Below are positions 834 through 4,064 of a DNA stretch of 32,000 bases, piece by piece. Made by a program: the position numbers and the translations under genes. Every line of letters begins with the position of its first letter. The first letter of the stretch is position 1. The notes under the pieces are model-generated. The model worked only from the letters and a program-made list of their open reading frames with translations. It was not told the origin of the DNA and did no database searches. Source of the stretch: Crocosphaera subtropica ATCC 51142 (lineage in GTDB: Bacteria; Cyanobacteriota; Cyanobacteriia; Cyanobacteriales; Microcystaceae); NCBI RefSeq assembly GCF_000017845.1, contig NC_010546.1, forward strand, positions 1,740,001-1,772,000, given 5' to 3'.

Positions 834-839
834 TATAAT
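834..839 (+). promoter_or_regulatory. Candidate -10 box (TATAAT) upstream of the tRNA gene
   Basis: Exact TATAAT lies 15 nt upstream of tRNA position 1 (854). No convincing -35 was seen. Confidence 0.3.
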
Positions 840-853
840 AGGCAATGGTAAAT

Positions 854-1195
854 GGGGCTGTGGCTCAGTTGGATAGAGCAAGCGCCTCCTGAGCAATCGG
901 GCATCCTGTACGGAAACGTCAGGCATGAATGTGGTCAAATTCAAGGAAGCCTAAGTCTAGACATTAGATAGGGTAATCTTGAGCCAAGCTCTACGTCCCT
1001 GGTAGAGAAGGTGCAGAGACTGGTTATCAGTGACCTAGGGGAAATTTGAATTAAGGGTATAACAACAACGCTGATAACGTAACGGCCACCACCTACGGAT
1101 AAAAAATTATCTAGGGTGAAGGAATAGTCCAGAGAGTAGGGAAACCTACACCAATCTGAAGCGCTAGGTCGCCGGTTCAAATCCGGCCAGTCCCG
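854..1195 (+). tRNA. tRNA-Arg(CCU) interrupted by a group I intron (exons 854..890 and 1159..1195)
   Basis: Acceptor stem GGGGCTG/CAGTCCC (one G-U pair). D arm GCTC-AGTTGGATA-GAGC. Anticodon stem AGCGC/GCGCT with spliced loop CT-CCT-AA. T arm GCCGG-TTCAAAT-CCGGC. Discriminator G. No encoded CCA. Confidence 0.85.
891..1158 (+). ncRNA. Group I (IC3-like) intron inserted after anticodon nucleotide 36
   Basis: The 5' exon ends in U and the intron ends in G (1158). P2 is CCTG-T-ACG GAAA CGT CAGG (905..923). P3 is GTGGTC (931..936)/GGCCAC (1084..1089). P4 is TTCAAG (940..945)/CTTGAG (978..983). P6 is CTCTAC (989..994)/GTAGAG (1002..1007). An extra helix is GTTATCAG (1023..1030)/CTGATAAC (1071..1078). 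P9 is GTAGG-GAAA-CCTAC (1136..1149). Core strings GTCAAATTC, CCTAAG, GAGCCAAGC and AAGGTGCAGAGACT resemble bacterial tRNA introns, from memory. Confidence 0.85.
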
Positions 1196-1424: not shown

Positions 1425-4064
1425 TTACTTTAAGCTTTCTGTTAGCTGCTCTTTAGCAGTTAATAAGGCTTCAGATAGTTTACTGGGTTCTCGCCCTCCA
1501 GCTTGGGCTAAGTTAGGACGACCGCCACCGCCACCCCCGCATATTTTAGCAATTTGTCCGATGAATTTTCCAGCTTGAAGTTGCTTTTCTTGATTGACTT
1601 TTTTACTAAAAGCTGCTACTAAACTCACTTTTCCTTCTGAGGGAATTGACCCTAAAATAACCGCTCCTTCTCCTAGTTTTTGCTGTAATCTTTCCGCTGC
1701 GGTTTGCAAAGCTTTTGCGTCCATTTCTCCCATGTCTGAAACCAAAAGTTTAAACTCACCAATGGACTCAGCTTCGGTTAATAATTGGTCAGATTTGGCT
1801 ACAGCCAGGTCTTGTTTAACCGCTTCTAATTCCTTTTGAGTGGTTTTGAGTTCAGACTGTAAAGTAGTAATACGATCGCTAATTTCTTCGGGTTTAATTT
1901 TAAAGCGATCGCAGAGATCCTTAACCACCGTTTCCCGTACTTTTAAATACTCTAAAACCGCTGGTCCGGCCACCGCTTCAATACGTCTTACCCCTGAAGA
2001 AATACCGCTTTCTGACATAATTTTAAACAAGCCAATTTCTGCGGTATTTTTAACATGAGTTCCCCCACACAATTCCATAGAAACTCCAGGCACATCGATC
2101 ACTCGAACTTCTGATCCGTATTTTTCACCAAACATAGCGATCGCCCCTTTTTCTTTAGCAGTTTCAATGGGCATCACTGCGATTTCTGTCTCGTGTGCCT
2201 CAGCGATCCAAGTATTAATTAAATCCTCAATTTCTTGTAATTCTTCTGAGGTTACCGCACGGGGACAATTAAAGTCAAATCTCAATCGATCAAAAGCCAC
2301 TAAGGAACCCGCTTGAGAGATAGACTTATCGACAACTTTCTTCAAAGCTGCCTGTAATAAATGGGTTGCGGTATGATTCGCTTGTACCTGACGACGACAA
2401 GCCCGATCAATGGTAGCTGTGACCTGATCATTAACGGAAACACTGCCCCTTTCTACCCGACCAAAATGAACAAAAATACCTGATTCTTTTTGAACATCCT
2501 CGACACGAATCACTAAATTTTCTCCTGTCAGAAATCCCCGATCACCTATCTGTCCCCCTGATTCTCCGTAAAATGGAGTCTGATCTAATACGATTTGAAC
2601 CTCTGATCCGGCTTCGGCTGTGTCAACGGTTTTTCCTTGAATTAAAACCGCTTCAACTTTAGCAGTTAATTGTAAGTCAGTATAGCCTAAAAATGCCGTC
2701 GGATGGATATGTTCAGCTAATTTATCTAAGCTACCTTGTACCGTTAAATCAATGGTTTCATGGGCAGCTTTTGATCGTTCTTGTTGCTGCCTCATTTCTG
2801 CTTCAAATTCTTCTATATTCACGGTTAAATTGCTTTCTTCTGCAATTTCTTGGGTGAGTTCTAAAGGAAAGCCATAGGTATCATATAAGGTAAAGGCATC
2901 TACCCCTGAAATTTGCCCTTGTGTCTCGGTTTTTTCAATGATTTCAGCGAGTAATTTTTCTCCTCGTTCTAAGGTTTTTAAGAAAGCGGTTTCTTCCCGT
3001 TCTAATTCTCCTTTAATAAAGCTTTCCCTTTCCCTAACTTGGGGGTAAGCGTTTTCAGAAAGTTCGATAGCCGTTTCTGCCACTTGCTTGATAAATTGCC
3101 CTTCAATTCCAATTAAGCGGCCATGACGCACTACCCGTCGAATTAAACGACGTAAAACATAACCTCTATCAGTGTTCGATGCAGTAATTCCATCAGCAAT
3201 CATGTGAACCACTGACCGCACATGATCCCCAATTACTTTTAAAGAAACTTTTGTTTTTTCTGTCGCTTTTTGGTAGTCAATGTTAGCAATGTTAGCAGCC
3301 GTTTCAATAATGGGAAAAATGAGATCCGTCTCATAATTATTGGGAACTTTTTGTAAGATTTGGGCCATCCGTTCTAACCCCATTCCCGTATCAATATTTT
3401 TGTTTTGTAATGGGGCTAAATTTCCCTCAGCATCTCGGTTATATTCCATAAATACCAAGTTATAAAACTCGATAAACCGAGAATCATCTTCTAGATCAAT
3501 ATTATCCTCTCCTAATTCGGGATGAAAGTCATAATATAGTTCTGAACAAGGACCACAAGGACCAGTGGGGCCAGCTTTCCAAAAGTTATCTTTTTCTCCC
3601 ATGCGTTTAATGCGTTGGGGAGGAATACCGATCATTTCTTCCCACAATTTAAAGGCTTCATCGTCCTTTTCAAACACACTCACCACAATATTTTCTGGGG
3701 GTAACCGATACACTTTCGTAGACAGTTCCCAGGCCCATTTAATCGCTTGTTCTTTGAAATAGTCCCCAAAACTAAAATTACCCAACATTTCAAAGAAGGT
3801 ATGATGTCTAGCGGTGCGTCCCACATTTTCAATATCATTGGTTCTAATACACTTTTGAGACGTGGTAGCACGAGGAAAGTCTGGCTGTTTTTGGCCGAGA
3901 AAAATGGGTTTAAACGGAAGCATCCCGGCGATGGTGAGGAGGACAGTGGGATCTTCAGGAACTAGAGAAGCACTGGGCAAAATTTGGTGATTGTGTTGAG
4001 CGTAAAATTGTAAAAAGCGATCGCGTATTTGATTTCCAGTCAGAAAGGGTGCAGTTGTGGTCAT
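1425..4064 (-). CDS. alaS: Alanine--tRNA ligase
   Basis: 879 aa. Class II AlaRS motifs are present ([15 protein letters not shown], editing-domain HTATHLL and CGGTH, C-terminal [15 protein letters not shown]). Confidence 0.97.

Follow-up and report, generated by a model that had tools for sequence, protein, structure and literature searches.

The only tRNA-Arg(CCU) gene of Crocosphaera subtropica ATCC 51142, found in a 32,000-nt stretch of the genome (the window), is interrupted by an IC3-type group I intron of class Arg.5Ug. This intron contains a 62-nt arm between P7 and the 3′ strand of P3 (P3′), and the loop of this arm most likely kisses L6. The intron is without an ORF, would splice as its well-studied homologs do, and appears to have been inherited vertically within Crocosphaera. 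We hold this reading as a whole with considerable confidence. A broader proposal, to which we give an even chance, is that a large clade of cyanobacterial Arg(CCU) IC3 introns shares a previously undescribed P7–P3′ arm which pairs with L6, clamps the two halves of the ribozyme together, and later became the site where a LAGLIDADG gene inserted. The intron itself belongs to a textbook class, and the arm is the part that deserves specialist attention. For group I folding, IC3 introns such as that of Azoarcus serve as the standard minimal models, and the introns with the arm form a sister clade. If the proposal is true, this clade would be a natural system for studying how peripheral elements stabilize a ribozyme core.

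ARAGORN, run without its intron mode, found no tRNA in the window. When the two exons (Table 1) are joined, the same program gives a regular tRNA-Arg(cct) cloverleaf with the anticodon loop CUCCU-AA regained (the hyphen marks the junction), and in intron-aware mode it reports cct i(39,268), that is, 268 nt in the anticodon loop. The splice site is after U36 of the CCU anticodon, between U36 and A37, and the last base of the intron is G1158. A whole-genome ARAGORN run (5.46 Mb in six contigs, 99.99% complete) showed a single copy of tRNA-Arg(CCU), which is the split gene; the other Arg tRNA genes have the anticodons UCU, CCG, and ACG. Thus, a default tRNA finder overlooks the sole tRNA-Arg(CCU) gene present in the genome, and this gives the locus some value for annotation.

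Strict σ70 promoter and intrinsic terminator scans at the locus found neither element, and a lone TATAAT is located upstream of the tRNA. The alignment of congeners begins at about position 823 and the remainder of the upstream spacer does not align, so the stretch around the TATAAT is conserved, unlike the rest of the spacer. We list this hexamer as a candidate promoter element. The gene downstream of the tRNA is alaS, on the opposite strand at 1425–4064. Farther upstream, positions 82–723 of the plus strand encode a 213-amino acid protein whose match to DUF6782, a putative metallopeptidase family, is weak and below threshold.

The Rfam model RF00028 (Intron_gpI) matches positions 824–1151 of the plus strand over its full length (model positions 1–253) with 64.1 bits and E = 3.1e-14, above the gathering score of 50 bits. 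All pairs of the core were verified base by base, and the P3–P7 pseudoknot and the P4–P6 and P3–P9 domains follow one another in canonical order. P1 consists of 3 bp between the exon CCU and the intron GGG, with a U890-G899 wobble at the 5′ splice site. P7 would, by homology, be the guanosine-binding helix. P5 (949–974) bears the motif CCUAAG...UAGGG, which resembles a tetraloop receptor and which we take to be one from the Azoarcus architecture. The core is of the compact IC3 type: P2 and P9 end in GAAA loops, P8 and P5 contain receptor motifs into which these loops presumably dock, and P5abc is absent. Minimal IC3 introns have no J7/3 element beyond 4–6 nt, and the 62-nt arm differs from them in this respect. 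This arm is a variation within subgroup IC3 and not a ground for excluding the intron from it.

Table 1. Features of the split tRNA-Arg(CCU) gene, in positions of the window.
Feature	Position	Strand	Basis
-10-like hexamer TATAAT, candidate promoter element, 14 nt 5′ of the tRNA start	834–839	+	Sequence read
tRNA-Arg(CCU) 5′ exon, tRNA positions 1–36; anticodon CCU 888–890	854–890	+	ARAGORN, joined and intron-aware
Group I intron, 268 nt, IC3-type, class Arg.5Ug; ωG at 1158	891–1158	+	Rfam RF00028 and helix check
Internal guide sequence GGG, pairing with exon CCU (P1)	899–901	+	Base-by-base pairing
P2 hairpin, 10 pairs, two single-base bulges; GAAA tetraloop 913–916	902–927	+	Base-by-base pairing
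P3 5′ strand GUGGUC; partner 1084–1089, 6/6 pairs	931–936	+	Base-by-base pairing, Rfam alignment
P4 UUCAAG/CUUGAG, 940–945/978–983, around P5 949–974	940–983	+	Base-by-base pairing, Rfam
P6 hairpin; terminal loop L6 GUCCCUG 995–1001	984–1011	+	Base-by-base pairing
P7 5′ strand G-AGACU, bulged A 1017; pairs with 1126–1130	1016–1021	+	Base-by-base pairing
Extra arm, 62 nt; P7.1-like stem 1023–1032/1069–1078, inner stem 1033–1036/1055–1058, 18-nt loop	1022–1083	+	MFE fold, covariation
Arm loop motif UAGGGG, complementary to L6 996–1001; proposed loop-loop (kissing) pairing	1036–1041	+	Duplex energy, permutations
P3 3′ strand GGCCAC	1084–1089	+	Base-by-base pairing
P8 hairpin, receptor-like motif CCUACG...CUAGGG	1090–1118	+	Rfam, base-by-base pairing
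P7 3′ strand AGUCC	1126–1130	+	Base-by-base pairing
P9 hairpin; GAAA tetraloop 1141–1144	1136–1149	+	Rfam, base-by-base pairing
tRNA-Arg(CCU) 3′ exon, positions 37–73; CCA not encoded, TTT next	1159–1195	+	Sequence and ARAGORN

An ORF scan found no frame of homing-endonuclease size inside the intron, and none in the arm. As there is no ORF in it, this copy cannot home by itself. A 92-amino acid ORF on the minus strand (941–1219) is at risk of being annotated as a hypothetical protein; it lies wholly over the intron and the 3′ exon, and so it is probably spurious. A preliminary description of this DNA, made from the sequence, had already recognized the tRNA-Arg(CCU) gene split by a 268-nt group I intron, with a cloverleaf that forms only after removal of 891–1158, a junction after the U of CCU, and a terminal G. 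Each of these points is borne out by the ARAGORN results and by the location of U890 and G1158. The helices that it named (P2, P3, P4, P6, and P9) all pair without mismatch, and its assignment to the IC3 type agrees with the core, the insertion point, and the Arg.5Ug class. The covariance model that it had proposed as a check scores above its gathering threshold. It had also been correct that there is no homing-endonuclease ORF, the 92-amino acid frame being the only one there, and the second, intact tRNA-Arg(CCU) which it had envisaged as counterevidence is absent from the whole-genome run.

The arm was described previously as an extra 8-bp helix enclosing about 40 nt next to the P7/P3 junction. 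This helix, GUUAUCAG/CUGAUAAC at 1023–1030/1071–1078, does pair and does enclose 40 nt, and it can be extended to 10 bp. The minimum free energy fold of the arm, a stem with a 4-bp inner stem, has –13.2 kcal/mol (z = –2.95). Its 18-nt loop starts with AGGGGAAA, in which AGGGG is unpaired in the fold, and the tail of the arm in J7/3 is GUAAC (1079–1083).

We surveyed the stretch between the 5′ strand of P7 (AGAGACU) and the 3′ strand of P3 in 127 related introns of 201–1088 nt. It is 4–6 nt long in 46 of them, as in the Azoarcus type, a hairpin of 36–147 nt in 64, and about 630 nt long in 17. A maximum likelihood tree of the cores, from which the P7–P3′ stretch had been removed, separates an arm-less clade from an arm clade with 99% support. 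The arm-less clade has 41 rows, from Nostocales, Microcoleus, Moorena, and others, and the arm clade has 86, comprising the 64 hairpins, the 17 long inserts, and 5 introns without either. The earlier suggestion that the insertion is lineage-specific does not hold, given that the arm is present in 64 of the 127 introns, characterizes one large clade, and is homologous to the LAGLIDADG-bearing arm of the 17 with long inserts. Some introns of the arm-less clade (L084 from Pelatocladus, L066, L096, L040, and others) have large insertions in P5 or P6 without a long ORF, up to about 430 nt in L084, and these may be repeats or decayed genes.

Is the arm a structure or only a passenger? Among 43 distinct sequences, 86.9% of the cells of the closing stem are paired, compared with 29–48% when the partner strand is slid. 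Nine of the ten pairs show changes on both sides, and the observed covariation score was reached by 0 of 500 shuffles. The inner stem also varies among congeners, as ACCU/GGGU, UCCC/GGGA, and GCUC/GAGC or GCUA/UAGC. From these comparisons, the arm looks like a selected structural element, with stems kept by compensatory change, rather than a passive insertion.

The 17 long inserts, all in introns of related species, carry an ORF of about 206 codons in the same arm. The ORF starts just 3′ of the 5′ strand of the closing stem, and the frame continues through the 3′ strand, J7/3, and P3′; its stop codon is mostly the UAA within the CCUAAG motif of P8. The product matches PF03161 (LAGLIDADG_2) with E = 1e-33, and I-SceI weakly. 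In these introns (L030-type, e.g., L023, at intron positions of about 150–784), the LAGLIDADG frame overlaps the ribozyme core. The 5′ strand of their closing stem is Shine–Dalgarno-like (GAGAG/AGGAG) and is paired with CCUCCU, which could limit translation. The core tree, when left free, places the ORF-bearing introns in three or four groups. Several independent ORF-bearing groups need not be assumed, as the constraint to one clade is compatible with the data and is not rejected (AU p = 0.53).

The arm loops of different introns have nothing in common except a short purine motif that is complementary to L6 of the same intron (Table 2). In the window, the L6/arm duplex has –9.8 kcal/mol. For 38 distinct introns with long arms, the best L6/arm duplexes have a mean of –8.9 kcal/mol for cognate pairs versus –6.8 ± 0.3 kcal/mol for permuted ones, and 0 of 10 000 permutations were as low as the cognate pairs. 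When each of 12 lineages is given a single representative, the values are –9.3 versus –6.1 ± 0.6 kcal/mol, with 0 of 20 000 as low. No complement to L6 is present in the short arms of 36–41 nt (Okeania, Trichodesmium, and some Oscillatoriales). Based on this complementarity and the permutation tests on best duplexes, the arm loop and L6 most likely form a kissing contact that links the P4–P6 and P3–P9 domains and stabilizes the fold.

Table 2. Complementary motifs of L6 and the arm loop.
Intron	L6	Arm loop
This window	GUCCCUG	UAGGGG
Xenococcaceae	UUGCUGU	ACAGCAA
L072, L079, L148	CUCUG	CAGAG
Waterburya	AUUCCUG	CAGGAAU
Chroococcus	GCUCC	GGAGC
Aphanothece	ACUCC	GGAGU
L018	AUUCUC	GGGAAU
L103	UCUCCCG	CGGGGGA
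L085	UCCCUA	UAGGGA
L137 (strands swapped)	GGG	CCC

The arm could instead be the scar of a lost homing-endonuclease gene, an intron with the ORF having invaded first, the ORF then having decayed and been deleted, and the closing stem left behind with no structural role. In the homing cycle, an ORF is usually lost once the intron has become fixed, and arms with and without an ORF do share, at one and the same junction, their closing stem and flanks (GGUUGUAGAG.../...CCUCCUACAAC-AUAAC); the scattering of the ORF-bearing introns over the free tree would also fit. However, when an nhmmer profile was built from the 17 ORF inserts, its matches to ORF-less arms were confined to the closing stems and did not reach the loops, so that this explanation gained no support from it. 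The loops are not free to drift, since their motif covaries with L6 in many lineages, and the inner helix shows compensatory changes. Furthermore, the 17 ORF rows may be one clade nested among arm-bearing introns, and they have no complementarity to L6 beyond that of shuffled controls. The earliest branches of the arm clade in the core tree are ORF-less arms with the kissing motif. A scar is in our view unlikely. It is more economical to suppose that a structured arm came first and that its loop was then colonized once by the endonuclease gene, an order which depends on rooting the tree, of about 235 columns and poorly resolved, at the arm-less clade. The ORF-bearing relatives would then show an endonuclease gene both colonizing the arm and overlapping the core.

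A second alternative accepts the L6/arm complementarity as real but makes it an alternative or regulatory pairing, in a folding intermediate for example, or a by-product of shared composition. The argument above is based on best-duplex energies, which correlated C-rich and G-rich composition can inflate; minimal IC3 introns fold without any arm (46 of the 127 introns surveyed have none), and the short arms lack the complement. On the other hand, the variants are specific in sequence, for example ACAGCAA/UUGCUGU, CAGGAAU/AUUCCUG, and CAGAG/CUCUG, and in one intron the two strands have been swapped. In addition, the cognate arm ranks first of 12 for several of the lineage representatives. We regard a non-stabilizing pairing as quite unlikely, and we retain the stabilizing kissing contact.

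The proposed mechanism is as follows. The pre-tRNA would be transcribed, possibly from the TATAAT. P1 would form between the guide GGG and the anticodon CCU, its U-G wobble lying at the splice site, and the anticodon stem would keep the two exons in contact. Docking would bring the GAAA tetraloops of P2 and P9 into the receptor-like motifs of P8 and P5, respectively, and the P3/P7 pseudoknot would provide the guanosine site. Free GTP would attack the bond between 890 and 891, after which G1158 would occupy the same site, and ligation of the exons would give a 74-nt tRNA to which CCA is added afterward. During this process, the contact between the arm and L6 would tie the P4–P6 domain to the P3–P9 domain, in a role like that which peripheral contacts play in larger group I introns. 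In one sub-lineage, the arm loop would have been taken over by the LAGLIDADG homing-endonuclease gene. We infer transcription, guanosine-initiated two-step splicing, and tetraloop-receptor docking by homology to the well-studied IC3 ribozymes.

Within the genus, the intron is present in 8 of 13 other Crocosphaera species, with 92–94% identity. The remaining 5 have an uninterrupted tRNA-Arg(CCU), and the exon sequences are identical with and without the intron. At three of the intron-less loci, alaS is also found downstream, so these are the same locus, and the presence or absence of the intron is precise. The spacers on either side of the tRNA gene cannot be aligned between congeners, while the intron can, at 92–94% identity, which points to purifying selection on the intron. 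In a tree of an alaS segment, the window copy has an intron-less species as its closest relative; the intron state has to change at least twice on this tree, and none of the bootstrap trees needs only one change, which is modest evidence from a single gene and six taxa. We propose that the intron has been inherited vertically in Crocosphaera and sometimes lost precisely. The earlier idea of possible horizontal movement is not supported as a recent arrival in this genome, because the Crocosphaera copies group together in the intron tree.

The wider distribution was scanned with one conserved 22-nt P7′–P9 motif in a species-representative genome collection. The motif matches at least 120 contigs and more than 110 cyanobacterial species. 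Among the matches listed, intron-aware ARAGORN reads 100 loci as a tRNA-Arg(CCU) gene that is split at the same site as in the window, nearly all of them in cyanobacterial records; hosts among the matches listed include Nostoc, Calothrix, Trichodesmium, Microcoleus, Spirulina, Moorena, Prochloron, and diatom endosymbionts. Of 401 genomes sampled evenly across the phylum, 44 have the motif, almost all of them from the same order as the window, in which roughly a third of the sampled genomes have it. The frequency per family is very uneven (22/25, 7/20, 3/45, and 0/29). The sporadic distribution claimed in the preliminary description is therefore correct for the genus, where 5 of 13 species lack the intron, but not as rarity in cyanobacteria, given more than 110 species. 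Williams (2020, bioRxiv 10.1101/2020.01.27.920355) lists Arg.5Ug among the four classical types of bacterial tRNA intron and finds no phylum richer in split tRNA genes than the cyanobacteria. This listing and the wide cyanobacterial distribution make the class a known and common one, and positions 854–1195 almost certainly contain a real intron of this class that is functional, as judged from its sequence and conservation.

The absence of another CCU copy is no proof that this gene has to function, as tRNA-Arg(UCU) could read AGG by wobble. With a tRNA-Arg(UCU) gene present in the genome, the intron might have ceased to splice and the tRNA have become dispensable, but such a dead gene is very improbable, since the exons and all core helices are intact, the helices are maintained by compensatory change, and conservation of the intron far exceeds that of the flanking spacers, in 8 congeners and more than 100 species.

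A metagenome-assembled genome labeled Candidatus Sericytochromatia contains a tRNA-Arg(CCU) intron (L052) nested among cyanobacterial introns of the Leptolyngbyaceae type, and its contig may be mis-binned rather than an example from a non-photosynthetic lineage. A 2017 paper on 'group I introns' of 22–49 nt in cyanobacterial tRNAs (PMC5733544) concerns a different subject.

How does this intron compare with known systems? Group I introns in tRNA-Arg(CCU) of alpha-proteobacteria were reportedly described by Reinhold-Hurek and Shub in 1992 and by Paquin and coworkers in 1999. That Arg.5Ug class has the same tRNA and an IC3-type core, is inserted behind anticodon position 36, and has U at –1 and G at ω; the present intron differs in its cyanobacterial host and perhaps also in its P7–P3′ arm. 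The Azoarcus-type tRNA-Ile(CAU) intron, an IC3 intron whose ribozyme has been crystallized, shares the 3-bp P1, the GAAA-capped P2 and P9, the receptor-like motifs of P5 and P8, and the core strings. It differs in the guide, GUG instead of GGG, and in J7/3, 4 nt instead of 62 nt; with a J7/3 this short, it has neither the arm nor a partner for L6. Two Burkholderiaceae metagenome-assembled genomes (L087 and L136) contain introns of 222–224 nt in tRNA(CAU) of the Ile2 type, with exactly the same 22-nt P7′–P9 motif as the cyanobacterial Arg introns. These resemble the arm-less clade, but the guide position is GUG, matching CAU, instead of GGG.

The position of the arm is one that we take to be equivalent to that of P7.1/P7.2 in subgroup IA (phage Twort and T4 td), which likewise has one or more extra hairpins in the P7 region. 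However, subgroup IA is another subgroup and there is no sequence relation. IA introns have two hairpins and an IA core, and here there is one bipartite arm in an IC3 core, so that the likeness is positional only. In the literature searched, pairing of an arm with L6 is not described for the IA P7.1/P7.2 elements. The P7.1/P7.2 hairpins of Twort are part of the peripheral structures encircling the guanosine pocket (Haugen et al. 2007, PMC1995217).

The tRNA-fMet intron of Synechocystis PCC 6803 encodes I-Ssp6803I, a PD-(D/E)XK endonuclease, according to a 2007 review, which gives bacterial LAGLIDADG genes for rRNA introns only. That intron is also a cyanobacterial tRNA group I intron with a homing endonuclease in some species only, but it is in another tRNA, and its endonuclease is of the PD-(D/E)XK family rather than the LAGLIDADG_2 found in relatives of the window intron. 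Neither a LAGLIDADG gene nor a contact with L6 is described for tRNA-Arg(CCU) introns of cyanobacteria in the literature searched, which did not include the older primary papers.

Rfam identifies three group I introns in this genome, in tRNA-Arg, in tRNA-Leu(UAA), and in a ribonucleotide-reductase-like gene. The tRNA-Leu(UAA) gene (C1:415293–415604, locus L002) has a 229-nt intron of the same subgroup, also found in this phylum, with a core 79% identical to that of the window intron over about 87 nt. It differs in the tRNA and in the insertion point, at U34/A35, and the copy in this genome has a J7/3 without the arm. The third intron (C2:118057–118279, locus L001; Rfam, 82 bits) is in a protein-coding gene on the 430-kb second replicon, and its flanks translate into ribonucleotide-reductase-like sequence (…GGVGVNLSRIR… / …IWHLDIPEFLEMR…).
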